Shown: positions 18,287 through 58,949 of the stretch, one piece after another
How positions within the stretch are numbered: position 1 is the first letter of the stretch
Layout of the letters: each line of letters begins with the position of its first letter
Assembly (NCBI GenBank): GCA_951406725.2
Contig: OX597820.1
Location: 92,380,001-92,444,000, forward strand
Length of the DNA: 64,000 nt
Direction of reading: 5' to 3'
Source of the DNA: Octopus vulgaris
Lineage: Eukaryota
Position numbers and translations under genes: made by a program
Notes under the pieces: generated by a model
What the model saw: only the letters and a program-made list of their open reading frames with translations
Told to the model about the DNA's origin: nothing
The model's database searches: none

Positions 18287-21052
18287 CCATGAAAGATCGT
18301 TAGCTCCTACAGACAACAAAATATAGTCATATGCAATACATATTGCCCACCGGATGCCCAAATCACACAGGCAAGTTTGAAGATTGCCTCACAAAAATTA
18401 AAGAAATCCTCATGAATCTGGAACACCACGTGACCATATTTCTTATGGGTAATTTCAACTTCCCCAACGTCAAATGGCCCAAAGGTCACATACTCTCAGG
18501 AATGAATCATTGCAAGCAAGTACAGGTGGAGTCCCTACTCAACCTCACCAATGCCTTATTCATGGAGCAAGTTGTACTGAAGCCAACTAGGGCGAATAAC
18601 ATTCTGGATCTCTGCTTCACGAACAATATGGACATCATTCATGATGTGAAAGTGACACCGACATCAGTTTCGGATTACAATATAATAGAGCTGTCTATGT
18701 TTGGGCCAAAAGTAACCAGAGACATACAGCCTAATGGAAGCACCCGAAATTTCTCCAATCTGAACTTCCACAAAGCAGATTGGAAATCGATCCAAAAAGA
18801 GATCCTCAGAGAGGACTGACCGGAATGTCTCTCCACACCAGACATTGACATGAAACTAGAATGTTTCATGTCTTCTGTGCAAGCCGTATGCCAGAAATAT
18901 GTCCCAGAACACAAGGCCAAAACAAATAGGAGAAAGATTCCAAGAGACAAGAAGATCCTCATGAGACGACGGACGAAGGTTGCAAATCGTCTCAACCAAC
19001 ATCTCAAAAGTAGCGAAACGTCCCGCCTAAAAACAACACTGATGGAGATCGAAAAAAGGCTGCAACAATCCTATGTGAAGGAGAAAGCAGACAAAGAAGC
19101 CTGGGTTATAAAAAATATTAAATCAAACCGAAAGGCCTTCTTTCATTACGCGAAAGAAACAGTCTCAGTGCACTACAAGATAGGACCCCTCCTCCAAAAG
19201 GATGGCTCCCTCACAGACAGTCCAACTAAGATCAGTGAGATGCTGAATGACCAGTTCAAAAGTGTCTTTACCACCCCGTTGGAACACAGACAAGTGAACT
19301 AACCAGTGGACTTCTTTGCCGCCTCACCTATAACCAGCGAGGCGGTTACAATAGAATGTATTGACATTAGCGAAAAAGATGTCCTACTAGTCATAGATGA
19401 AGTGGACACAAACTCAGCTGCTGGTCCAGATGGTTTCCCAGCCATCCTCCTCAAAGCGTGTAAGCATGCCCTGGCAAAACCCCTCAAGATTCTCTCCCAG
19501 AGCTTTCTTGCGAATGGCAAACTGCCAAGCAAGCTGAAGGAGGGAATACTATGCCCAATACATAAAGGGGAAAGTAGAGCAGATGCCAAAAACTATAGGC
19601 CTATCTCTCTGACTTCACACATCAGCAAAGTCATGGAACGGATAGTCAGAAAAAAAACTAATCGCATTCCTTGAGGAAAATAACTTGCTGAGTGATACCC
19701 AGCATGGTTTTCGACCAGGTAGGAGCTGCCTGACCCAGCTCTTACAGCATTATGACTGGGTGTTGAGGCAGTTACTCAACAAATCAAATGTGGACGTAAT
19801 CTACCTTGATTTTGCAAAAGTTTTTGACAAGGTGGATCATGGTATGATATGCCACAAACTGCGTGACCTCGGCATAGTTGGAAAACCTGGAGTGTGGTTA
19901 CATGACTTCCTGAATGATAGGAGTCAGGTAGTAGTGGTTAATGGATCCACCTCTATGAACACACAAATAGTGAGCGGTGTTCCACAGGGCACTGTCTTGG
20001 GACCACTGCTTTTTATAGTGGCCCTCTAAGATATGCCCTCAAATGCCCGGATAGCCACTCTGGCCAGCTATGCAGACGTAACGAAAGTCTCGCAGAAAAT
20101 ACAGAACCCCAGCGATGTTGCACACCTGCTGCAGAAGTTGGACTCAATCTACAGATGGGCTGAGGATAATAATATGCAGTTTAATGCTGAAAAATTCCAG
20201 GCCCTGCGCTACCAGCATCCAAAACTGAATATTAAACATACAGGATACACCGGTCCACAGGGAATTTAAATCCCAGAGCCTAAGTCTGTGAGGGACCTGG
20301 GTATCGACATGAGTGATGATACCTCTTTCCAAATGCACATTACCAAGATGGCGACAAAGTGCAGACGACTGGCTGGGTGGATCCTAAGAACATTCAGAAC
20401 CAGAGATGAGGAAACCATGATGGTCCTCTGGCAGACATTCGTCCTCAGCCGCCTGGATTACTGTTCACAGCTATGGTCACCCACCAATGTAAAATTAACA
20501 GCTGACCTTGAAGCAATCCAGAGAAGATTCACAAAGAAGATCGTCTCTTTGCAACAGCTCAGCTACTGGGAAAGGTTGAAACAGCTAAGACTCTACTCCC
20601 TGGAGAGACAACGGGAGAGATATGCAGTAATATATGTCTGGAAGATCCTGGAAAAAATTGTGCCAAATTTTGGCATTGTAAGCTACACCAATGCTAGAAC
20701 GGGACGACACTGCATAGTGCCAAATATCCCAGCAATGCCATCACGCTTCAGGACCAGCTTCTGCAACAGCCTGAGTTTCAAGGGCCCACAGCTTTTTAAT
20801 ATTCTCCCAAAGAGTCTGAGGAACTTGCACAAAGTAGATGTAGCGGTTTTTAAATCAAAGCTGGACATCTTCCTGTCAAAAGTCCCAGAGGAACCTACCT
20901 CACGGCAAGAGGTGCAAATGAGAGTAGCTATATCAAACTCCATTCTTCACTAAGTGCCACATATTAGACGAGGTTCTTCGCAATAACAGTGCAGCACAAA
21001 ACGGCGGTGCATCAGCATGGCCGCAGCTCTGAGCTGTAACTAGAAAAAAAAA
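18287..21052 (+). mobile_element. 5'-truncated non-LTR retrotransposon (CR1/L2-group-like) with disrupted APE-RT ORF2
   Basis: APE motifs GNFNFP, NILDLCF, SDY; RT motifs YRPISLTS, QHGFRPGRSC, YLDFAKVFDKV, SGVPQGTVLGPLLF, YADV (mutated YADD); C-terminal LYSLERQRERY. Several stops and a frameshift across 18331-20953; A-rich 3' end. Confidence 0.92.
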
Positions 21053-21143
21053 GAATAAAATAAAAAAACAAACAATTAAATTGGAGAAAAATGAATTAAG
21101 TAAAATGTTTTGTAAATATTTGCCAAGTCTCTCTGTCTCTCCG

Positions 21144-26481: not shown

Positions 26482-26938
26482 GATAGAATAAGTACTGGGC
26501 TTACAAAGAATAAGTCCCGGGGTCGATTTGCTCGACTAAAGGCGGTGCTCCAGCATGGCCGCAGTCAAATGACTGAAACAAGTAAAAAGAGTAAAAAGAG
26601 ATATATGCGATAGGATTACGGGTTTCCGTCAACCAAATCCACTCACAAGGCTTTTATCGGCCCGAAGTTTTAGTAGTAAACACATGCCAAGGGTATCACG
26701 CAGTTGGTTTCAACCCTGAGCCACATTTTTTACCACACGGCTACTCCTGAGCCTGTAGCTACGCGTGCGTCTGTGTGTATATTTATATGCATGCATGCAA
26801 GCGTGGCTATGTGGTAAGAAGATTCCTTCACAACCTCATGATTTGGGGTTCAGTCCAACTGCGCGGCATCTAGATCAAGTGTCATCTACTATACCCTCGG
26901 GCCAATCAAGTCCTTGTGAAACGGAGAAAAGCCAGCCG

Positions 26939-27021
<83 letters not shown>

Positions 27022-27090
27022 AAATAAATATATATATAAATAAATATATATATATATATATAATAAATAAATATATATATATATATATAA

Positions 27091-27200: not shown

Positions 27201-29477
<2,277 letters not shown>

Positions 29478-29497
29478 TACATATACATATATATATA

Positions 29498-29562
<65 letters not shown>

Positions 29563-29921
29563 TTACGGCTGGCTTTTCTCCGTTTCCGTCTGCCAAATCC
29601 ACTCACAAGGACTTGATTGGCCCGAGGGTATAGTAGATGACACTTGATCTAGATGCCGCGCAGTTGGACTGAACCCCAAATCATGAGGTTGTGAAGGAAT
29701 CTTCTTACCACATAGCCACGCTTGCATGCATGCATATAAATATACATACAGACGCACGCGTAGCTACAGGCTCAGGAGTAGCCGTGTGGTAAAAAATGTG
29801 GCTCAGGGTTGAAACCAACTGCGTGATACCCTTGGCATGTGTTTACTACTAAAACTTCGGGCCGATAAAAGCCTTGTGAGTGGATTTGGTTGACGGAAAC
29901 CCGTAATCCTATCGCATATAT

Positions 29922-30305
29922 CTCTTTTTACTCTTTTTACTTGTTTCAGTCATTTGACTGCGGCCATGCTGGAGCACCGCCTTTAGTCGAGCAAATCGAC
30001 CCCGGGACTTATTCTTTGTAAGCCCAGTACTTATTCTATCGGTCTCTTTTTGCCGAACCGCTAAGTTACGGGGACGTAAACACACCAGCATCGGTTGTCA
30101 AGCAATGCTAGGTGGACAAACACAGACACGCAAACACACACATACATATATATATACATATATACGACAGGCTTCTTTCAGTTTCCGTCTACCAAATCCA
30201 CTCACAATGCATTGGTCGGCCCGGGGCTATAGCAGAAGACACTTGCACAAGATGCCACGCAGTGGGACTGAACCCGGAACCATGTGGTTGGTTAGCAAGC
30301 TACTT
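29922..30305 (-). mobile_element. SINE family A, full body; its extreme 5' end is displaced to 32491-32525 by an insertion
   Basis: Tail, core and head are present up to ggttagcaagctactt; the head resumes as gttagcaagctacttaccacacagccac at 32491. Confidence 0.85.
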
Positions 30306-32490
30306 TATTTCAAAACATTTGCCATAAAGGCAGTACACAGATTAAGTTAGCTTTGCGGGCTGGACGAGGACATTAATGAAGTGAATGATAATGAAAGAAA
30401 GATGATAAGGATGGGAGAAGACAAAAAGCGCCCGCCGACTTTCGCTTCTCTAAAACATTGTTCTTTTTAAGGATAAACACAAAACGAGGTATTAAACCTC
30501 TTACAATTTTTCCAAATTTTGGACTTAGCAGTCCATTATTAATTAAAATAAACACAAAACGAGGTATTAAACCTCTTACAATTTTTCAATTTTGGGACTT
30601 AGCAGTCCACTACTAATAATAACAGTTCAATAATTACATATCGTCCTCGAAGTCGCTTGTGCCCGCGCCCTCCACCATCAACCACGCCTCCCTCAGAACG
30701 TAATCAAGTTCCGAGTCAGCGTCGCCCGGGACCAAGTTATAATCTTCATTGAGCTCCTTTAGCCCAAGCGTCACGTCGAACGCCACGGCCTCCACAGCTA
30801 CCTGCGGAGGCCATTCGGGGTCCTATGTGAAGGCTAAAGGTGCTCCCTTGTGATGCTCTTCCATCACTTTTTCAATTTCTCCTCCTCTATAGAAGAGGAC
30901 CAATACGTTCAGTTCTTTCGGTGGCGGCACAGTTCCCGCCAACGGTATTCCTTCTCTTGTCGGTGGCACAACCCCAACCGACGTAGTTCCGGGACATTCC
31001 GGTGCTACACTGACAGTCGGTAATGTCCCGTTTTTCTTCCTCTTTTTCTTTTTTTTTTCCCTTTTCAACTGAGGGAGAGTGCGTCTCCTCCGTGGCTGGA
31101 AGATTCGCCTTCCTCTCCTCATCCCTATTATCATTTGGTGAGCACCCATTGTTGTTCACCTTCCTCTTTCTGCCTCTGTTTGAGGAGTCCTCTGCTTTCT
31201 CGGCCGTTATCATTCCCTCTTCTAGAGGGGTTTTACTTAACTGTTCCGGGATCCTATTTTGTTCCCGGGGACAGTTCTTCTTTATGTGGCCGGACTCCAA
31301 GCACCGATGACACTTAGGGGGGCGACCCTCAAGCATCACCGGGTACCTGCACCCGGCCATTTTCAAAAAATCTGGAAGAACCAGATTGGCTGATTGGGTT
31401 CACAGGGTCAAAATTGCTTTTGACCCAACCCAAGCAGCCGCAGGAAGAACTTTTACATTAAGGAGCTTAGTTTCGCTGCCACCCAGACCCCGGCGGATAG
31501 TCTCCTCTATCCACTCGGGTTCTATGTCGGGTGGCAGACCGCAGATCCAAGCTTTCATCAATTTCTTTTTTTTGTACGTGGGCAGGAATAAGATTTCCTT
31601 ACCCTCCAGGGGTTTGCTAGCAAATTTGCAAGCCTCTTCAGGGGTGTCAAATAGCAACCACACCGTTGCATATTTGACACCCCTGGAAATGAATTTAATT
31701 GTTGGCAAATACTCTTCCAACTCCTTTTCAATTGCCGTCTTTTCGAATAGGGCGATGGTGTCGAGTGCCTTGGAGTAGGTTCTCAACACCACCGTCCTAT
31801 CTTCACGGTCTTTTAACCACTTTTTAGGCGGTATGATCTCCCATTCCAAAAGTTTGTTATTTTTCATTGCCATGTTCTTTTTTTGTTTTTTGTTTTTTTG
31901 TTTTTTTTTTAAATGTATTCAGAATAAAACTAAAAAACGAGAGGAAAAGGAAATCCGAAGAAAGTCACAGTGAAAAAGTTAAAAAGAAAGTCAAATAAAG
32001 TTAAAGAAAGTCAATAACACAGCAAAAACCTTCTGGCCATTTGGTACTCCCGGCCTAAATTGAACCAGGAACGCACAACTTCCACAAAACTTGGTGTAAA
32101 ATTGGTAAAACTTGTTCAAACTTCGGAGGCAAAATACTCCCCTATATAGCAGTTTTCACAAAAAGTTCTTTACAGCACAATACAATTCTCACAATTACGT
32201 GAAAAAAATATTCACTCAATTTATCGAAGACGGATACGCCCCTCCACTGTTTTTTTTTTCAATAAACACAAAAACGGCAGCCGCCGAGAGCAGGCGAAAT
32301 TGTCTCAGAGTTGGAAACAACTTACTGAAATAATAATTGGCACGCAATAAATTATGCCCAACTCACAATAAACAAAATCGCTTACCTCGACAACTTTCCG
32401 TTTTTGGTCTTTTTTCTTTAATTGGACGGAGCTGGTTGACTCGCGTCCACTCTGGCTGCACAGGAAGCAACTGACGAACTGCGCATGTGT
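30306..32490 (-). mobile_element. 2185-bp ORF1-only non-LTR-type element with 15-bp TSD
   Basis: TSD GTTAGCAAGCTACTT at 30291-30305 and 32491-32505; a single gag-like reading frame; no RT or endonuclease motifs seen. Confidence 0.85.
30634..31873 (-). pseudogene. Disrupted gag-like ORF1 (~410 aa) with CCHC zinc knuckle
   Basis: ORF pieces 31873-31400, 31366-30887 and 31149-30823, continuing past a TAG as DPEWPPQ...DFEDDM-stop at 30634. AWICGLPPDI and YPVMLEGRPPK-CHRCLESGHIKKNC resemble L1/Tx1-type ORF1. Confidence 0.78.
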
Positions 32491-34230: not shown

Positions 34231-35058
34231 ATTTCCCTTCCTCATCTCTCTATATACTCTCTTTTGTTTAAAAGCAAATTTGTTGTATATACTGACTCCT
34301 TCAATAATACGCTTGTGGTAGCGAAGATTTTCTGTCTACCTGTACGTATGTAAGTATGTATGCATGTATGTATGTATGTATGTATGTATGTATGTATGTA
34401 TGTATGTATGTATGTATGTTTGTATGCACGCATGTATGCATGTATTGGTGTGTAGGTACATTAGTAATTCATTGTGTTAGCTTTCTGGTGTGTGTTGTGT
34501 GTGTATGTGTGTGTGTGTGTGTGCATTCTTGTGTGTGTGTATGTGTATGTGTGTGCATTCTTGTGTGTGTGTCTGTCTGTATGTCTGTGTCTCTGCATAT
34601 GTACGTGTTTTGTAGCCTGTTGTTTTCACGAATAATTAAGCACCAGTGTGTAAGTCTGCGTAAGTGCGTTCTTGCACGCATCTCTATTTCCGCGTATGTG
34701 CATGTATGTGTGCAAGCATGTGTGTAAGAGTTTCTTGTAAATATGTCTGTCCATGTTCATGAATGCGTGTGTGTGTACGTGGATGTGCGTGTATTACTGT
34801 GTGTCCTAGTGTGTATGCGCTTGTGATTTTCTGTGTGCTTGCATGTGCGTGATGTGTTTTGTTATGTACTGCAAGTGTTCATTATTACATGTATTTTTCT
34901 TCATTCATTTATCCTGCAATCAGTTTAAGGCAACCCTATACATACATGCCTATACCCACTTATTCAATCGCACCCACAAGAATACACACACCCATACACT
35001 TTTTCATGTATTGCATGAGTAGTAGCAGAAGTTATGTCGTTCTATTATTTACGTTGTA

Positions 35059-36326
35059 TTGGGTTGGCAACTAAGTTCCCACCGTTATTGGTAAAATTTT
35101 AAATTTATTGCATTTTTAAATTTTGTAATCAATTTTTTTTCGAGAATTCTATGTTTGAATCATTTTGGAATCTATTTTGTTTTTTGTTTTTTTTTAGTTA
35201 ATTTTTGTTTATTTTCACATCATTAAAATGGAATGTCAAGTTTTAAAAAAACCAGCACTTCGACACCTACTTCGATTTGCTTTTAATCAAGGTTCTAAGG
35301 ACGCAAAATCTGCTCGCGACATTTGTGCTGTGTATGGAGAGGGTGGCATAGCTGAAAGAACCGCTCGTTATTGATATGCCAAGTTCAAAAATGGATATTT
35401 TGACCTCAAAGTCGAACCTCGTTCCGGTCGTCCAGTTGAGTTCGATGAAGAGCGATTAAACCAAATTCTGCACGAACATTCTCATCAAACGACAAGGAAA
35501 CTGGCAGAGAAAATGGAATGCTCCCACACTGCTATAGAGAAACATCTTCACACGATGGGAAAGGTTCAGAGTTATAGAGCATGAGTTCCGCATGCTTTAA
35601 GTAACAACAACAAAAATCAACCAGTCACAATCTCCGCTGGTTTGCTTGCTCGTCACCGCTCAACTCATGGACACAAGCAACGATTTCTTTATCGAATCGT
35701 TCCTGGCGACGAAAAATGGTGTCTGTACATCAATATGAAGCAGCTCAGGACCGGTAAACAAGCGACACCGCGCGTGAAACAAGATCTTCACCCGCTCAAA
35801 ACTATGTTGTGCGTATGGTGAGAGTAGAAAGGGATTATTCATTACGAATTGCTTGAACGGAACCAGTCAACGTGGAACTCTATGTTCAACAGATAGAACG
35901 ATTTAACACGGCTATTCAAGAGAAACAACCTCATCGGCAGCATGGAATTCTGCTGCACGACAACGCCCGCCCTCATATCGCTAATATGACCAAGGAAGCC
36001 ATTCAAACGCATGGCTGGGAAGCGCTGCCACAACCCCCGTACTCTCCTGATTTGGCACCAACGGATCTCCACCTCTTTTGGTCTCTTTCAAATGCTATGC
36101 GCGGAGTTTCCTTCAATAGTGATGCAGAATTGAGAGCTTGGTTGGATCGAGTCGAAATTGTGTGATTTCTACCAACGAGATATTGAAAATCTTGTTGAAT
36201 GTTGGTAAGAAGTTGTAAACAACAAGGGGGAATACATTATTGATCAATTAGTTGTCATTTCTAATTAAGCCTTTTTAAAAATTAAATTAAAAAAAAAAAA
36301 CGGCGAGAATTTAGTTACCAACCCAA
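35059..36326 (+). mobile_element. Full-length defective mariner transposon (D,D34D)
   Basis: TIRs ttgggttggcaactaagttccc / gagaatttagttaccaacccaa with TA on both sides. Transposase from ATG 35228 with GDEKW, HDNARPH, YSPDLAPTD; stops and frameshifts. Confidence 0.93.
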
Positions 36327-39300
36327 TATATTTTTATTGAGTGTCGGCATTCTCTCATTTATGACCCACGTATATGTCGTAATGAGGAGTCTCTCGTGCT
36401 AGTTTTCACTGTTACTTTGATTCAGTATGCCACTATGTTGATGTTTGATAGATTATCTTCTAAGTTCACACAATACTGATCTTATCAGAACAAGTGTTCT
36501 TTTAAAATGGATATGTCTTATATAAATTGTTTCCTAATGGACCGCCTTTCTTTTTCCTGCAAATTTGATGTTCAATTTAACTTCCTTCATAATATTCCCA
36601 AACCTGCTGGCTAAATCCCCATATGACATAGCCCTTGAAATATATGTTTAACCATGTATTTATTTTAATTGATTTATCACTAGTCCTCTATATTCTGTTC
36701 TACTGTATGCCTCAGTATCTAGAGCGGGTCCCATTGAAATCCTTATAATAGCATCGAAACTTTTCCTAGGTTTCCTGTACACTCTAACTCTACCTTTCTG
36801 ATTGCAGACAAAGAACTGCATGCGAGGCATAAAGTCCTGTGTAATTCTTTTTATTTCACAGGGTTTGCAGAGAATAGGCCGTTGTTCGTCGTCCAAACTA
36901 AATCCGAACTAAATACTTTAAGTATGCTTATCTTTTTATTGTGTGATAAAGCTGTGTTCTTCAAAATATTTGCAATTTATGGGTTTCGAACAAAACCTCA
37001 GACGAGTTGACTATTTTTTGCTTGTAGTTTCTCACGGAAGTTCAGTTTTAAGAAAAGGGAGTCTAATGTTAGTGTATTTAGAGGGTAGACTATCGTTAAC
37101 TATATATTCTGGTGGGTGGAGCTAGCTATGAACTTGATGTTCTCTTTTCTGTTTCTTCCACTACCAGTGATTGTCTTAACTAGGATGTTGATATCGTCTC
37201 GAACATTTACTCTATATATCATATCTAGCAACACAACTATCTCTTTGCTGCGTGCTCTCTCTCTCACTCTTTCTGTATCTATCTACTTACCTACCTTTGT
37301 CTATGTTTCTATCAATCAATCTATCGATATATGTCAATATGTGAATGCGTATGGACGTATATGTATGAATGAATGAATGTACGTATGTATGTATGTATGT
37401 ACTTACGTATGTACGTACGTATGTACGTACGTATGTACTTATGTATGTATGCATACATACATAACCTTAGTTTTTTTTTTATTTTGACCTAAATAAATAC
37501 AGGTAAAATATGCTGCTTCACTCGTGTGTTTTTATCCCCCACTCATCACCTGTCCTCATTAACTATATTTTATCATAATTCACTTACGTCTACATCGAGT
37601 CACTAACGCTAGTTTGGTAGTTATGACAAATATACAACATTGCTGCTTCTGTTCCCCCTGTAATGAGCAAGCATAATATGGACCTGCGAAAATCTATATT
37701 ACTGTAGATTGGAATTTTTTAATATTCCACTCTTTTTGTTGCTTTTAGTGTTGATATATTTATTACGTTTAAAAATGTAAATCGACGTACCAAATTACGC
37801 AGCGATGTGTCGCTAAGTGAAGAGATAAGCATAATCCTTTTACATCACTTTAAATAATTGCCATAAGCTATACCTAAGGATTTGCTTATATTTTATTGTT
37901 TTATTTTAGATAAGGCTATGTTCATCTAATTACCGATGTCTATGTATTATTTCTATTACTTCTATTTAAAATTGGATACAGTTCCTCTCAAAGTTATTTG
38001 AATATTGGCAATACTTCTTGTTAATTAATCGTCCTACGATCATTTATATCTTTCCTAGTTTCGACTTCATTTGTTCTTTGCAACCTGTTCTAACATAGTT
38101 TTCATACTAAATGAGTCAGTCCATATGGAAGTAGCATATACACCGCAAAAGCTATAATCTCATCCATCAAATTTACTCAGTTATCAAACATCCTCATGCT
38201 TCCAAGCATTTCACAGCCTTTGAATACCTTCATCCGGGTTACCCACCTGCTTCGTGGTTTTTTTTTACTAATTCTATAGTTTTTTTCTGGTCATAAACAT
38301 AATGTTTAGAAATATAGCACCGTTATGTAGTATGGAAAAATCCTCTTCCTTTGTTTACATATTAGCAACTTAAAAAGTTTCGTGTTCTACAACCTTCACA
38401 GTAGTACACGTCCTTTCATTTATGTTTAAGTCCGATTTTTTGTTCTTTTTTTGTGACACTATTCACCTAGGACAATGACATCAAGTATATTCTTTTTCGA
38501 ATACATACGGCATCATTTCATAGATCAGAATAAACATTTCGTAGCTGGTGGATCGCATCCAGTGAGTTCTCATTGGAAGGGTTTCCTAGACTTATTGATC
38601 TAAATATCAGCAAATTTTATCGATTATTAATCTTCCCAATCAAATCAATTACAATTTATAACCATGCGACAATATTAGAAATCATTAATATTTCTTACAC
38701 TTTTGCTGGTAAGGTTGATTATCATAGAAGACTGCGGCGTAATTTTCTACGAAATGTTTATTCTGATCTATAAAATTAAGATTGTCTACCAGATAATACG
38801 TAATTACTGGCGTTCCCTGAAAATTCATTTTAACAACAATTACTATTTGTAATGAGATGTAAGTGAGCTGCGTTAGTAAGATTTTAATTATGCCTGTCTA
38901 TTGTTTGGAGAAACCACAGACAATTTATTGTATATTTTAATACGTGCAATATCAAATGTTTCTATTAACTACGCTTGGAAAGGCGTAATATTCACTAAGC
39001 TGACTTCCTCTAACTGCACTACATGAAGAAAATGAGCCATAAGGGATAGTCCTGTTCCAAAATTGGTAATGAGATGCAGATCAATAACTTCAATATTAGG
39101 TTTGTGTCATACTATAATACTGATCTTTAATCCCAACCAATTCATCATGTTGATAGGCTGTCATAAACTTGTTAATTGGTATTTGGATTCGCCTTAGCTC
39201 TGTTTTCAAATATGTCTGATACCATTTGAGCCCATTTGAAAAAATTCTATTATACATTACGTTTCTTAATAATATTTTTACAATGCAATTACTAATCGTT

Positions 39301-49456: not shown

Positions 49457-49501
<45 letters not shown>

Positions 49502-49588
49502 TATTAGAAACAAAACCACTATTTTGCAAAACAAACAAGGAAAGACTTAATCAATACATAAAATTTTAATAAATAGTCAAAAAAACCG

Positions 49589-49631
49589 CCACTACAATTG
49601 TTTCTTGTCTTGATCGACAATCTTCAGGTGG
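49589..49631 (-). ncRNA. Type I HHR, mirror copy
   Basis: Exact reverse complement of 49672-49714. Confidence 0.82.
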
Positions 49632-49671
49632 ACTTCCAATAAGTCAGTTTCAAATTTGACTTATTGGAAGT

Positions 49672-49714
49672 CCACCTGAAGATTGTCGATCAAGACAAGA
49701 AACAATTGTAGTGG
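49672..49714 (+). ncRNA. Type I hammerhead ribozyme, intact core
   Basis: CCAC-CUGAAGA-UUGUC-GAUCAA-GACAA-GAAA-CAAUUG-UA-GUGG: all three helices present, palindromic ACAAUUGU, GUA cleavage triplet. Confidence 0.85.
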
Positions 49715-49887
49715 CGGTTTTTTTGACTATTTATTAAAATTTTATGTATTGATTAAGTCTTTCCTTGTTTGTTTTGCAAAATAGTGGTTTTGTCTCTAAT
49801 AATATTTTATAATATTTTACTATAAAATTGGATTTAATCCTAAATCTGATTTTTTTCCTGTAAATTTGGATTTTTTTCCCTAATATT

Positions 49888-49927
<40 letters not shown>

Positions 49928-50218
49928 CTCGCTGCCTTTCAAATTAGCGTGTAATATTTGGAAGAATGATGTTTCTAACATGGATACAGATAATTGAAGT
50001 ATTGCTTTGGTTCAGTATTAGAACGCTTGTCTTGTGTTCAGAAGTGAGTTCTAGTCTCATGGGCCGCCTTCTACATTCATTTTACCCAAAAGAGATTTGT
50101 CCTAAAATTTACGCTCAAGTATTTATAGCATTAATGCTTCGAGTTCCGCTGTCATTAAAGAATATTCTATGTACTCGAAGTTCCAAAATGACGCCAAAAG
50201 TATGTGCGTGTATATATA

Positions 50219-51495
50219 TTGGTTTGTCAACTAAGTTCCCGCGGTTTTTTTAAATTTATTTTTTAAAGATTTTATTAAAAATAACAACTAATTAATCAAC
50301 AATGTATTCATCTTCCCAACGTTCAACGAGATTTTCAATACCTCGTTGGTAGAAATCACACAATTTCGACTCGAAAAATTTATCCAACCAAGCTCTCAAT
50401 TCTGCATTTGTATTGAACGATTCTCCGCGCATTGCATTTGAAAGAGATAGAAAGAGGTGGAAATCCATTGGTACCAAATCAGGAGAGTACAGCGGGTGCG
50501 GCAGCACTTCCCAGCCGTACGTTTGAATGACTTCCTTGGTCATGTTGGCGATATGAGGGCGGGCGTTGTCGTGCAGCAGAACTCCATGCTGCCGATTAAG
50601 TCTTTTCTCTGGAATAGTCGTGTTGAGAACATGTCTTGAATATAGAGTTCCGCGTTGACCGGGTGGTTCCGTTCAAGCAATTCGTAATGGATAATCCCTT
50701 CCCAGTCCCACCATACGCACAACATCGTTTAACGTAGATGAAGATCTTGTTTCACGCGCGGTGTCGCTTGTTTACCGGGATTAAGCCATTCCTTACGCTG
50801 CTTCATATTGATGTACAGGGACCATTTTTCGTCGCCAGTAATAATTCGGTAAATAAATCGTTGTTTGTGTGCATGAGTTGTGTGGAGACGAGCAAGCAAA
50901 CCGGTGGAGATTGTAACTCGTTGATTTTTGTTGTTGTCATTCAAAGCATGTGGAACCCATACTCCATACTTCTTGAACTTTTCCATCGAGTGATGATGCT
51001 TCTCTATAGCAGTGTGAGAGCATTCCATTTCCCCTGCCAGTTCCCTTGTCGTTTACGAGAATTTTCGTGCAAAAGTTTGTTTAATCGATCTTCATCGAAC
51101 TCAACAGGACGGCCAGAACAAGGTACGTCTTTGAGGTCCAAAATTTCCCTCTTTGAACTTGGCAAACTAATCACAAGTGGTTCTTTCAGCTATAGCATCC
51201 TCTCCATATACAGCACAAATGTCGCGAACAGCTTTTGCGGCCTTACAACCTTGATTCAAAGCAAAAAGGAGTATGTATCGAAAATGCTCGTTTTTTTATT
51301 TTAACTTGACATTCCATTTTAATGATCTGAAAATACACAAAAATTAACTAAATTTAACTAGAAAAAAAAAACAAAATACATTCCAAAATGATTCAAAAAT
51401 AGAATTCTCAAAAAAAAGATAATAGATTCCAAAATTTAAAAACGCAGTATATTCCAAAATTTAAAGAAACTGCGAGAAATTAGTTGCCAATCCAA
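50219..51495 (-). mobile_element. Second full-length defective mariner of the same family, opposite orientation
   Basis: TIRs ttggtttgtcaactaagttccc / gagaaattagttgccaatccaa with TA flanks; WVPHAL, TGDEKW, YSPDLVPMD in broken frames. Confidence 0.93.
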
Positions 51496-52233
51496 TATGT
51501 GCGTGTGTACGTGCATGTGTGTGTAAATTCGTACATGTATATATCGCTGCACATTATATGGTCGCATATGGTTCTTTATCAGTATCTGTATGTTCAAGTA
51601 ATTCCTGGCCAGCTTCTCATATCATTCATATATTCTCAGCTTTCTGAGTTTTATCCTGAGCTTGGTTGGATCGCTTGCAATAAAACTTTGATAGTTTTAG
51701 GTTGCAATAAACTTAGCAATATTATGTATTAATATGGAAGAAAATTAATTTCACTCATATATTGAGTTATGGTGTTATTGTAGCATTGCATTTAAACATC
51801 AGATTTTCAGTCAATATATCAACTATAATTATCACTGGAAATCAAAATGAGCGGCCACGTACATGTCAGTTTAAACTTCTATCTGAGCGTGTGAATATAA
51901 CCTGGACGATTCATTCATACGTGTATATGTAGATGTATTTATCTACATGTGATTGAATATGAGAATGTGTATAAACATGTAAGTTAAATTTCGCTGTGTG
52001 CATATATATGTGTATACGCGTGTTAGTTAGGGAGAGACTGTGTGTGCGCTCATTTGTAGCTGTGTATGAATATATATGTGCAATTGTGCATGTATAATTA
52101 AGTTATACATGTATATATGCATGTTTAATAAATGTGTCTGTGTGTATGTATGTATATGTGTATATATATATGTGTATGTATATATATATATATATAGATC
52201 ACTCTCTCAAACTCTCTCTCTCTATATGTATAT

Positions 52234-52851: not shown

Positions 52852-53314
52852 ATACGAACATAGTTAAACACACACATATATATATATATATATGAATACA
52901 TATGATGATATATACCTGTATACACATATGAACATACATGTATAAATATACGAACGTATTTATGAGTATGTATATGTCTGTGTGTGTGTCTATGTATAGT
53001 TCTAAGTATATATATGTATATGAGAATATTTTTGTATGTACGTATGTGTGTGTGTGTGTGTGTTTGTAGGTTGTTAGGCAGGTAGGTATTGCTCCGTTGT
53101 CATGAACATCAGTGAATTGTTTTGTTTTGTTTTTATAAACATTTCACATAAAGTCAACTAAAATTTAACCGTGAAGAATTGCAATGCATAAAAACGAAAT
53201 TAAACATCTATTAAATTACCTTACAGAAAATTGTGGATGAAAGCTAATATTACAAAAACAGATGACGAAAATAACGCTTAACGACGAACAAAAGAATATA
53301 CACACATACATGCA

Positions 53315-53660: not shown

Positions 53661-54002
53661 ACTCTATACTCTTTTACTCTTTTACTTGTTTCAGTCATTT
53701 GACTGCGGCTATGCTGGAGCACCGCCTTTAGTCGAGCACATCGACTCCAGAACTTATTCTTTGTAAGCCTAGTACTTATTCTATTGGTCTCTTTTGCCGA
53801 ACCGCTAAGTTACGGGGGTGTAAACACACCAGCATCGGTTGCCATGCGATGTTGGGGGGACAAACACAGACACAAACACACACACATACATATATAGGTA
53901 TATATATACATATATACGACAGGCTTCTTTCAGTTTCCGTCTACCAAATCCATTCGCAAGACTTTGGTCGGCCCGAGGCTATAGTAGAAGACACTTGCCC
54001 AA
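53661..54002 (-). mobile_element. SINE family A body and tail lacking the tRNA head
   Basis: Minus strand begins ttgggcaagtgtcttctactatagcctcgggccgacc and ends in (GTAAAAGA)n. Confidence 0.85.
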
Positions 54003-54010
54003 TGCGTTAC

Positions 54011-54128
54011 GCTTACTGCAGCTAGGTTTCCCAAGCGGTCACCCATCTAAGTACTGACAAGGCTCGACGTTGCTTAACTTCGGTGATCAGACGAGAACCG
54101 TTGATTTCAACGTGATATGGCCGTAACC
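54011..54128 (-). pseudogene. Full-length 5S rRNA-derived sequence fused to a SINE body
   Basis: Minus strand GGTTACGGCCATATCACGTTGAAATCAACGGTTCTCGTCTGATCACCGAAGTTAAGCAACGTCGAGCC...AGTACTTAGATGGGTGACCGCTTGGGAAACC...GCAGTAAGC; 118 nt with box A, IE and box C; no oligo-T terminator. Confidence 0.88.
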
Positions 54129-54175
54129 ACGTACACACACACACATGTGTATACATATATATATACGTATATATG

Positions 54176-54253: not shown

Positions 54254-54294
<41 letters not shown>

Positions 54295-54381
54295 AAGGGT
54301 GAAAAGGAACACACGAGTTGATATATATGAAAAAACAAGTCAAAAATAGAAAATGCTAAAATAATTTTATAGTGAACATTT

Positions 54382-54419
54382 CAGTACCGGTTTCGGTCAT
54401 TTTGAGACCTTTTCAACTG
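54382..54419 (-). ncRNA. Type I HHR (U3-A8 variant), mirror copy in the inverted arm
   Basis: Reverse complement of 56546-56583. Confidence 0.72.
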
Positions 54420-54735
54420 TAACGATTAAATAATTAAATTTAGAAAAATTAGAAGAAAGGAATATTAAAGGAATATTTCTATAGTAGTGTTCAGATATAA
54501 GTAGCATTCTGCCTTTCTCTGACTCCCTTGTTTGCACTTGTGTGCTGGAGGTCGTTGTGAGTTCTTGATAGGATAGTAGAGGAAGAAGGCTGATGAGGAA
54601 AGGGGGTGGGAGAATCTGGGAGTGCCCTGATGGTCGTATTTTAAATGGTCAGTGGCGGCTGGCAGTCGCAGTTCAATTCAGGAGAATATTTCTATTGAAA
54701 GGCTTGTTTATAGAATTTGCGTAGGTGTTATACTA

Positions 54736-55856
54736 GAAAGATATGGCAGCCCTTTCTCCATCTACATAGAAAACAACTGGAAGAGATATTTAGATGACTG
54801 TTTCATCCTTTGGCATAAAAATATAGAAAAACTCATAGAATTCCAGGAAATTTTAAACGGACTGGACGTAAACATCCAATTCACGATGGAATATAGCCAG
54901 CAACAACTCCCCTTCCTCGATATCCTGATTAAGAAAGCTAATAATATAATAGAAACAGACATATATTATAAGCCTACGGACTCTAAGCAATATCTTCCAT
55001 TCAATTCATGCCACCCCAGACACACTAGGATGAATATCCCCTTCAACCTAGCAAAAAGGATATGCACTATAGTCTCGAACGCAAACACCAGAGACACACG
55101 ACTACAAGAACTAAAAGATACCCTTATCACCAGGAACTATCCACCTTCACTTATTGACAAGTGCATTCAACGTGCCCTTCAACTTAACATCAAGGAACTG
55201 ATTCATCCCCAATCAAAGAAAAACTTACAACCAAAAGCCTTACCATACATCTCCACACACAACCCTCTCAATAACGAAGCCTTCGGCACCATCCTCCACA
55301 ACATACCCCTCCTAAAACAAGACCACAGAATGAACACAATCCTCCAAACACACACGATCATAAAAAGCAAGAGACAGCCTAAATCCATGAAAAGTCTCCT
55401 AACACAAGCCCGAATTCACTCTTCAACACAGAAGCCGACAGTAAAAAAATGTGGAAGACCCAATTGCGGGATATACGACTATCTAATTGAGGGATCAGAG
55501 TTCTCCTTCAAACAGGGCAACGGTTTACAGTGAAAAGCAACTTCACATGTGCTTCGGAGAACCTAATATACTCACTAACCTGCTCCGGGTGTCAAGAGCA
55601 GTACATAGGCCAAACAAAAAATAGTTTGCGTAAACGAATGGCCCTGCACAGATCCCAGATAAAAATTCCCCAAAACAGAAAAATAACTTTTAGCCAACAC
55701 ATAGATACTTGCGCCAACAAAAAAAACACCAAGCTTCAGGATTTCCCCCTCTACCAATTTAGGGACGATACAACCTCGAGACAACGAATAAGTAAAGAAA
55801 CTCTCTTTATTGCAAAATACAGGCCACTTCTAAACGGGTCTACGACAAACAATTAA
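54736..55856 (+). pseudogene. PLE RT (C-terminal part) + Cys linker + GIY-YIG endonuclease, frameshifted
   Basis: WKRYLDDCF, LPFLDILI, YYKPTDSKQYL..SCHP, CGRPNCGI, NLIYSLTCSGCQEQYIGQT...RMALH. Confidence 0.9.
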
Positions 55857-56545
55857 TATACCTCAACTTTAGAATAAAAGAAATATTCACACACAAATAT
55901 TACATTCCAAAGAATCCATTACTAATCACAGCTAAAATCACAGCTATAATCCACAACATGCCAACTTCAATTCATACTTTAACCCATTCATATTCTCCCT
56001 TCTCTGTTTTTTTCTTCTTCTTCATCATCATCATTATCATCATCATCGTCGTCATAACCATCACCACCATCACCATCATCGTCATCTTCTCCTTCTCCTT
56101 CTCCTTCTTCTTCTTCTTCTTCTTCTTCTTCTTCTTCTTCTTCTTCTTCATCATCATCATCAACATCGTCATCTTCTTCTTCTTCTACTTCTCCACCTTC
56201 TACCCCTTAACTTTGTCACTAATGTTTTTTAGTATAACACCTACGCAAATTCTATAAACAAGCCTTTCAATAGAAATATTCTCCTGAATTGAACTACGAC
56301 TGCCAGCCGCCACCGACCATTCAAAATACGACCATCAGGGCACTCCCAGATTCTCCCACCCCCTTTCCTCATCAGCCTTCTTCCTCTACTACCCTATCAA
56401 GAACTCACAACGACCTCCAACACACAAGTGCAAACAAGGGAGTCAGAGAAAGGCAGAATGCTACTTATATCTGAACACTACTATAGAAATATTCCTTTAA
56501 AAAACTTTTCTTCTAATTTTTCTAAATTTAATTATTTAATCGTTA

Positions 56546-56583
56546 CAGTTGAAAAGGTCTCAAAATGACCGAAACCGGTACTG
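56546..56583 (+). ncRNA. Minimal type I HHR with compensatory U3-A8 core
   Basis: CAG-UUGAAAA-GGUC-UCAAAAU-GACC-GAAA-CCGG-UA-CUG with palindromic ACCGGU, about 90 nt from the PLE 3' end. Confidence 0.75.
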
Positions 56584-58949
56584 AAATGTTCACTATAAAA
56601 TTATTTTAGCATTTTCTATTTTTGACTTGTTTTTTCATATATATCAACTCGTGTGTTCCTTTTCACCCTTATACATATATATATATATATATATATATAA
56701 ATATAAAAATATATAGAAGGACATTTTTTGATTCGAATGTTATGTGAACATTTGGACACTTCCTTCGAGATGGAGATAATTTTAATAAATTAAAAATATT
56801 TATTGTATGGAATTTGTTAAATATATACCTGTCTATATATGCCCTTGGCTACTCATTGTTATTTCCTTTACGTCATTTTTGTGCAACATAGAAATAACAT
56901 AGGCTGCTAAATGTGTGCTCTTCTCTTTTTATATGTCCTTGATTTTGGTGACTCCGACTGTACGATCAAGGTATTTAGTGTTGCTAGCAAAATTACTCTA
57001 GGCGATCTTGGGTATAATGTAGTGGCAGGTCAAGAAGAAGCATTAAAGGAGACATTGATTTTGATACAGGTAACCTAGTTCTTCTCGGTACAAGGAAGTG
57101 CTGAGTACAACGGTTGTATACACTTTGTGTACAACGCTTATGCTAGATGTAGATCCGCTATGGTCTTACCACTAAGATATGTTCTTAAGAAAATTTAGCA
57201 AATACCAGAACGTAAGCGAGCAAGAAAAATGAAAAATATCCTTATTTTTGTTACTATGAGTAGGGATGTATCAATGTACGTATGTGAAACAAAGTCTTGC
57301 ATCGAAATTCAGCTTTTATGAGTATTTATTTATACGTTTAAATATATTGGGTCTGGGTACATAAATGTAAATATGCATACATAATTATAATTACTGAGGT
57401 AAATTTTAGAACGAACGTGATATATGTGTTAATTTGTGCGTTTTGATATATGACTTTGCATAGACATAAATCATTTAAGAATTGCGTGTGAAGACACGTA
57501 GATATATTTTCACATTTAGAACTAATTTAATTAGCACCTATATATTGGGAGAGGCTTGATATATTAAGTTATATGCGCATGTCTACTTTTAGAAATGAAT
57601 GTACTGAGATGAAGGGATACATATTTATATATAAAACAAATGTCATTTTAGTGCTGGAACCTTAAGTTTTCATTTAAAGAAGTGTGCTTTGAAATATAAA
57701 GCTTTTCTGCATTGCCGTCTATCGAGTGACATGACATGAACTGTATTCGAACTTTCAAAATCATAAATGTTTTCGTATAATTATGTATTAATTAGTAATA
57801 TGATATAGGCTTAAAGCCAATAATGGTTAATTAACACTGACTTCATTAATTATTTTTAGAATAAATGTAAATAGATAGGTATGTCTGTATCTTTCAGAAT
57901 ATATATATATATACACACACCTACATATATATATTATATACTATGTTATGTAGATAGATTTAGCTTCAAATTAATATATCAAAATGCGTTTCTTTCTAAA
58001 TATGAACAAATAATAGTTTTAATAATTTCTGCTGTCTTAATAAATAGTAAAACAAACAACAAATATTAATTTCCTAATGAAAAGTTTTCTCCTATCTCGG
58101 TTTTAATAAAGTACAATCATATAAATATAACGATAGTTAAGTACAGATAATTAAATATTAGGATTGTTTGTTTAGATCGTTCGTTATTGCTCAAATATTT
58201 TAATTGTCAGTTGTATCATGTGACGTGCCTGATTGTGTTTTTGTTGTTTTTATTCACCATTGAATATCAGTATATCAGGTTAAAAAGAACGTACACCCAC
58301 ATTCCAAAATGAAAAAGAAATGAACGCCTCTTTGGTCTTAATTGATATATTCAATCAAGATAACATTTCGCTTCATTATTGATAAAATAATCCCATCTTT
58401 TTAGCTAATTGATCTTCAGGCGTAAAACTTTTCAGGTTTCAGAGCCGATCAAAGATAATTTTTAACCTCTTCATAATCAACAAACTGGTTTCCCTGTAAA
58501 TGATGGTGTTATCATTTTAAAGAGATGATAGTCGGATATAGCAATGACAGGAACGTAATGAAAATGAGGCAAAACTTCTATAAACTTGTCCTGAATGGTT
58601 TACTCAATGTGGTGTTGCATTATCGTTCCAAAGTCACATGTCTTCACGACTGATCAATGATCAGCACTTTTTCTGCAAATTGTTTTCAATGCTTTCAACA
58701 TACGACAGTACATTTTTGCATCGTTCATATCCCACATCCTTCATAGCCTATGAAACACAGTATGTAATATTTTTCAGCTATAGTGCCACCTGGTGAATAG
58801 ATACCCTTGTTTCATTCGTTGCGAAACATTGTCAGTTTCGTTAGGTATAATAAAAAAGAAAGCACTTTTCCACAATATACTTAGCATGACCGGACACAAA
58901 ACGTTTTATTTCCAAAGTTACTATAATATTACTGAAAAACTTCTATGTG

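Follow-up and report, generated by a model that had tools for sequence, protein, structure and literature searches.

A full-length 5S rRNA copy joined to a headless tRNA-type SINE, probably a single chimeric retrocopy

Chimeric retrocopies and SINEs are reportedly the subject of work by Buzdin, by Kapitonov and Jurka, and by Nishihara (2006), and the OR1/OR2/OK group of octopus SINEs is said to have been treated by Ohshima and Okada in 1994. Both small-RNA chimeras and the exchange of a tRNA head for a 5S rRNA head are already in print (PMC11838501, PMC3272025, PMC5804259). Each U6/L1 chimera is unique and non-propagating, and the human 5S/L1 chimeras are often antisense and truncated (PMC11838501). 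In the case of the SINE family HaSE3, template switching has been proposed as the origin (PMC3272025). In two octopus genomes, 27–31% of annotated elements are tRNA-Core SINEs (PMC8967140 Table S2). There were no octopus SINE entries in the available parts of the supplements of PMC4758252 and PMC4824008, and no curated 5S-headed SINE for octopus was found in the literature outside subscription papers and Repbase.

The window, by which is meant the whole stretch of 64,000 nucleotides that was analysed, is animal-like DNA rich in repeats. At 53661–54128 on its minus strand there is a genuine structure of 468 nt, in which a full-length mutated copy of 5S rRNA is fused to a SINE body that has no head of its own and that ends in a LINE-like tail. 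The 5S sequence (54128–54010, minus strand) matches Rfam RF00001 over model positions 1–120 with 88.1 bits (E 1.6e-17). Nothing else in the window reaches an Rfam gathering score, and no second 5S copy was found there. The preliminary description had called the 5S complete, which is true of its length but not of its sequence, since 5 of the 34 Rfam base pairs are non-standard. The parts of the element, followed by two features used for comparison, are:

54011–54128, minus strand: full-length (118 nt) mutated 5S rRNA copy, without upstream spacer (Rfam)
54003–54010, minus strand: 8-nt junction linker (alignment to the 5S end and the ordinary head)
53917–54002, minus strand: 5' SINE body, from the head/body boundary on, a CORE-like motif at its start (alignment)
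53860–53916, minus strand: internal TA/TG simple-repeat tract, common to ordinary copies (alignment)
53733–53859, minus strand: 3' SINE body (alignment to the copy at 30 kb)
53680–53732, minus strand: LINE-like tail with stem-loop (alignment to the LINE 3' end, folding)
53661–53679, minus strand: terminal short A/G-rich repeats passing into TA microsatellite (sequence)
29915–30310, minus strand: ordinary tRNA-headed copy of the same SINE, the comparison reference (alignment)
18304–21060, plus strand: broken APE+RT LINE, whose 3' end is homologous to the SINE tail (Pfam, tail alignment)

The element is thus shorter than 1 kb and has its body and tail in common with a tRNA-headed SINE. SINEBase recognises a SINE3 by at least 60% identity to 5S rRNA over at least 60 nt at the 5' end, together with a length below 1 kb, a body and tail, and interspersion, and the window element has all of these.

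Four runs, each in the form of contigs, were aligned to the window at 80% likeness. Three were taken for the best-matching organism (organism A), these being the DNA runs X1 and X2 from two separate studies and X15, which is possibly an RNA run; the fourth, X4, is from organism B. Aligned over 333 columns, the body and tail (54002–53672) have 89% identity with the ordinary copy at 30250–29926. The 5' body agrees with that copy at 78 of 86 positions and differs from the majority letters in organism A at 3 of 86, and the 3' body and tail give 184 matches and 15 mismatches against the same copy. The 9-nt motif that opens the SINE body is also present in the CORE-SINE consensuses Pami and Ante; of the CORE domain of about 60 nt that follows the tRNA-related head of a CORE-SINE, this comparison covers the 9-nt motif. 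A search of published papers for the SINE body motif found no match. The parent SINE may resemble the octopus tRNA-CORE SINEs of the OR1/OR2/OK group, a resemblance with which the shared 9-nt motif and the large share of tRNA-Core SINEs in two octopus genomes agree.

That the tail is LINE-like, as first described, is borne out by an alignment of 53732–53680 to the LINE 3' end at about 20996–21048, with a score of 41 that was reached in 0 of 2000 shuffles. All of the other equally scoring places for the tail in the window are SINE copies. A similar stem-loop is present in both ends (z -3.0 in the SINE tail, -2.9 in the LINE end). The LINE at 18304–21060 (plus strand) has Pfam matches to Exo_endo_phos_2 (E 3e-6) and RVT_1 (E 7.6e-14), and its family is, on the tail homology, a candidate mobiliser of the SINE. 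A search with the protein of this LINE gave 322 relatives. Elsewhere in the window, 26482–27030 and 29472–30040 are an inverted duplicate (95%) that includes a SINE tail plus two SINE fragments with heads, and two open frames at 30887–31918 (minus strand, 170–172 aa) that have no Pfam match look like the remnant of a LINE ORF1.

In minus-strand order the 5S ends at 54011, the linker gtaacgca occupies 54010–54003 and the SINE body starts at 54002, and both the linker and the start of the body where the ordinary tRNA head ends agree with the preliminary description. In all five of the ordinary copies in the window that were examined, the body starts 13–14 nt past a B-box-like motif, and in standard tRNA numbering 13–14 nt past the B box is the 3' end of the tRNA, within 1–3 nt. 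The commonest loose SINE end in the runs is 54002, from which 1789 contigs in X1 and 1854 in X2 continue as ordinary head. The "tRNA head" is recognised by promoter-box-like motifs only; ARAGORN, run on the window, and Rfam, at E of 10 or less over 29400–30500, gave it no tRNA identity.

Aligned column by column to the final 8 nt of the ordinary head, the linker matches at 4 of 8 positions (chance 11%), and a GC just before is shared. Since the linker shares columns with the end of the ordinary head, the point of the switch can be placed to within about 10 nt. The earlier wording of a "promoter-module swap" describes the anatomy, not a promoter shown to work. The start of the linker is within one edit of the terminal hexamer of the 5S (chance 0.9%, post hoc), and the linker resembles that hexamer re-copied with one extra base, which suggests a false start and then a restart on a new template. 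Plain mutation of the ordinary head is disfavoured as a source of the linker, as half of its 8 nt would have to have changed (P at most 0.007 at 3.5–11% divergence). A third possibility is that the linker may derive from target DNA. It has 5 nt in common with the downstream microsatellite, and 4 of the 16 longest 5S pieces listed for X1 and X2 extend 2–6 nt into it, which fits a target-derived linker. In X15, a 110-nt contig over 54000–54088 (record 13) crosses the linker, covers no more than 3 nt of the SINE body and then continues with 20 letters that do not fit.

The reading that we prefer, at a probability of roughly two in three, is that a single LINE-driven switch of template from SINE RNA to 5S rRNA, within one insertion, generated a chimeric retrocopy. 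The architecture is that of such retrocopies, with a full-length small RNA at the 5' side, free of the flanks of its gene, and in the same sense a 5'-truncated retroelement at the 3' side. The LINE enzyme would likely have bound the SINE RNA through the stem-loop that the homologous 3' ends share, and primed at a TA-rich site. Tail and body would then have been copied, with a likely halt at the boundary where the structured tRNA-like head begins. From there the enzyme is likely to have jumped to the 3' end of 5S rRNA, adding 8 extra nucleotides by slippage or untemplated addition, and to have copied the 5S, which is full-length, same-sense and spacer-free, through to its 5' end. In the R2 reverse transcriptase, template jumping requires nontemplated addition (PMC8857657). 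Afterwards the locus likely decayed neutrally, without spreading.

It is very unlikely that the joint was made outside reverse transcription, whether a cleaved SINE RNA without its head was ligated to 5S, or a 5S copy and a SINE were joined by DNA recombination or repair at the GC microhomology. RNA ligation is one route proposed for the U6/L1 chimeras (PMC11838501), cleavage at a tRNA-like 3' boundary would account for the precise start of the body, and the changes are clustered around the joint. A clean ligation would not, however, leave eight extra nucleotides, and the ordinary heads, as single strands, have no significant fold (z +0.45, -0.92 and +0.36), which lends no support to tRNA-type processing.

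Two of the non-standard pairs of the 5S copy are in the terminal helix, and the helix breaks are uncompensated. At 54056, 54059, 54068 and 54101 its letters are not those of the 5S majority in organism A; at 54089 the same is true of X2 and X15 but not of X1. The letters at 54068 and 54089 are common to sizeable 5S minorities and look like 5S variants. From the pairing and the loose ends in organism B, further 5S changes can be inferred at 54127 and within 54017–54027. The window letter at 54101 is found in at most 0.38% of the 5S depth in X1 and 0.24% in X2, equal to at most 21–26 single-locus equivalents. Both window letters, at 54101 and at 54059, are thus rare, with ceilings that range over 0.2–0.9% of 5S depth, that at 54059 being equal to at most 23–52 single-locus equivalents. 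Diagnostic head substitutions common to many copies but absent from the 5S gene, by which a SINE3 family would be recognised, were thus not seen at 54101 or 54059.

The 5S homology stops at the ends of the mature RNA. Depth in X1 falls about 100-fold, from 198,573 (54117–54124) to 1,766 (54133–54140), and the 5S pieces of organism A end at or near 54011. This collapse of depth past the mature 5S ends fits an RNA-derived copy.

By standard 5S numbering, which we assume to apply here, the box A region would be at 54079–54065, the intermediate element (IE) at 54062–54057 and the box C region at 54049–54032. The box C region has no difference from the majority letters of organism A, and the 5S internal promoter is, as far as its letters go, largely kept. 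The absence of a terminator claimed at the outset is confirmed, as the first run of four T on the minus strand comes at 53293, at a distance of 836 nt from where the 5S begins. The 5S part contains a putative promoter and has no upstream spacer; type-1 promoters depend more on upstream signals, and retroposed ones that lack these are considered weak (PMC3272025). A functional 5S gene was considered and rejected, given the broken helices, the 836 nt without four T, the missing upstream spacer and the single copy in the window.

Over 54005–54126, X1 and X2 contain numerous full-length copies that resemble 5S, dispersed, each at single-locus depth and with 13–22 differences from the window copy, and organism A appears to be rich in 5S pseudogenes or in a simple 5S-derived repeat. 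In X4, over 54028–54100, 5S-like pieces lie head-to-tail with a period of about 50–68 nt at very high depth, which suggests a 5S-derived tandem repeat in organism B.

The number of copies of the junction bears on the choice between a single event and a spreading family. Single-locus depth was taken as the median of the 8 long pieces listed for each DNA run, which is 56.8 in X1 and 17.4 in X2; 32 of 232,552 pieces and 15 of 54 joints were listed. Among those 15 joints there is only one between 5S and SINE body, from 54009 or below to 54022 or above. It is represented by one joining contig in each DNA run, with a depth of 56.7 in X1 (shorter side 33) and 20.9 in X2 (shorter side 29), or 1.0 and 1.2 times the single-locus median. 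In both runs the joining contig keeps the linker, and it skips or replaces 12 nt relative to the window. It may be an allele or orthologue of the window locus. An assembly artefact is unlikely, the 5S-to-SINE join being at the same place in two separate studies. The 16 longest pieces listed for X1 and X2 (110–120 nt) are dispersed full-length 5S copies, and in none of them does the sequence run on into SINE body. Members of a family with as much divergence as the window copy would yield longer bridging pieces that would top the list, so that the 0 of 16 counts against a family.

Of 19 sampled words of the element, no run contained more than 11; X2 had 10, and X3, a run from the same sample as X2 that was left out of the alignments, had 6. 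None of the runs listed with words of the element was identified as an RNA run. Patterns for the junction and for the SINE body gave 0 matches in metagenome and viral contigs, where even the abundant body has no match, so that this result is uninformative. X15 had no joint among those listed and no contig with the window letter at 54101, and as a possibly-RNA run it is given no evidential weight.

It is quite unlikely that the element belongs to an amplified 5S-headed (SINE3) subfamily, whose body and tail would be those of a tRNA SINE and whose transcription would start from the 5S promoter, and in which the substitutions of the window copy would be private. This would be an undescribed octopod SINE3 family, doubtful to the same degree, in which 5S took the place of the tRNA head at the module boundary and the same LINE produced hundreds of copies. 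The switch point is at the head boundary, box C has no majority difference, the element has no run of four T, and the intact tail could be mobilised. There are also precedents, among them HaSE3 and the mollusc 5S+CORE SINE Ante. In a RepeatModeler-derived table, SINE/5S-Core-RTE has a share of 0.021% of elements for O. bimaculoides but 0 for O. vulgaris, and SINE/5S one of 0.03–0.04% for both species (PMC8967140 Table S2). The former label, which may have picked up such a 5S-headed family, is automatic, and this counts on the other side. In the main text of the papers, as available, "5S-Core-RTE" was not found. The X1 depth at 54013–54020 is 103,027, which taken alone is compatible with several hundred bridging copies, and a family that was young and collapsed in assembly would be expected to give short bridging contigs, outside the 32 pieces listed.

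Against such a subfamily are the one joining contig at single-locus depth per DNA run among the joints listed, the lack of bridging in the 16 longest listed pieces, and the ceiling of 21–26 single-locus equivalents for the window letter at 54101. The window itself contains one junction, as compared with several ordinary heads, on the copies near 0.2, 3.0, 26.7, 29.7, 30.3 and 41.4 kb. With respect to the 100 copies required of a SINE3 family, the evidence leans strongly against. The preliminary description had left the choice between a SINE3 subfamily and a one-off switch. The single-locus depth of the joining contigs, the 0 of 16 bridging pieces and the presence of the two substitutions in less than 1% of 5S depth favour the one-off, and the copy-number evidence does not support the amplified SINE3. 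The chimera is probably unique and not a spreading element.

Both flanks of the chimera are TA-rich microsatellite, in which the best suffix/prefix match is 2 nt and the shared strings are simple repeat. No target-site duplication around both parts is definable in these flanks, so that a single insertion event is probable rather than demonstrated, and independent adjacent insertion, the refuting case of the preliminary description, keeps some probability.

Two independent insertions are nonetheless considered unlikely. A 5'-truncated SINE would have inserted behind a dispersed 5S pseudogene, the linker being old target DNA, or, as part of the same estimate and in the reverse order, a 5S retrocopy would have been primed into a SINE at the GC/GCGT microhomology, with loss of the head. 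In organism A, 5S pieces that are dispersed and single-copy are frequent (all 8 listed for each DNA run), and the SINE depth, at about 1e6 single-locus equivalents (a summed overcount), is such that chance neighbours are expected. The 4 of 16 listed 5S pieces that reach the first linker bases, the 5 linker nucleotides in the downstream microsatellite and the missing duplication point the same way. The 5S is also somewhat more diverged, at 4–5 of 118 positions shown and up to about 10 with the inferred positions, than the 5' body (3 of 86). Two insertions would, however, need the same orientation, a spacing of at most 8 nt and a cut no more than about 2 nt away from the head boundary (about 1% if random). 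The 5S part lacks a separate tail, and no displaced SINE head was found upstream of the 5S or past the neighbouring Penelope-like element.

This Penelope-like element, at 54260–56705, begins 130 nt upstream of the 5S. It has an RT-like frame (no Pfam hit) and a GIY-YIG frame, both flanked by 480-nt inverted repeats with 97.7% identity to each other. Other inverted structures in the window are a 1.3-kb repeat pair (35057–36331 and 50214–51497, 82%), within which 50292–50672 looks like a mariner-like transposase remnant, with no Pfam hit, and palindromic stretches at 49487–49815 and 1763–2592, 97% and 75% identical to their own reverse complements.

If the chimera is the product of a single template switch, as we prefer, it is a snapshot of a head exchange, the step that is thought to found 5S-headed SINE families. 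It would be such a step outside mammals and without amplification, with a candidate partner LINE in the same window. If a family were true instead, the gain would be a cephalopod SINE3 in a class that is already known, and a comparison of type-1 with type-2 Pol III promoters on one and the same body and tail would become possible.

Among known systems, the octopus tRNA-CORE SINEs (OR1/OR2/OK) may be like the parent SINE, a very abundant tRNA-headed SINE with a CORE-like start to the body. The chimera itself is like the U6-L1, 5S-L1 and snRNA-Alu chimeras of the Buzdin type in having a full-length Pol III RNA at its 5' side, in the same sense, and in being apparently unique (PMC11838501, PMC4494074). 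It is unlike the small-RNA/L1 chimeras in that its 3' partner is an invertebrate tRNA-type SINE, cut at the head boundary, with no demonstrable target-site duplication, and its same-sense, full-length 5S sets it apart from the human 5S/L1 chimeras, which are often the reverse in both respects (PMC11838501). The scaphopod Antalis entalis has in Ante a 5S-derived head followed by a CORE with the same 9-nt motif (PMC5804259). Ante differs in being a consensus, drawn from 43 reads, in which a V domain is added and the end is poly(A); judged by eye, the 5S in its head is incomplete and the rest of its body is unlike the window SINE (PMC5804259). In HaSE3 of Helicoverpa armigera, as here, a 5S head replaces a tRNA head, and the body and LINE-like tail are those of HaSE1. 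HaSE3 is, however, a multi-copy family in several moths (PMC3272025), whereas the evidence for the window chimera is that of a single locus.
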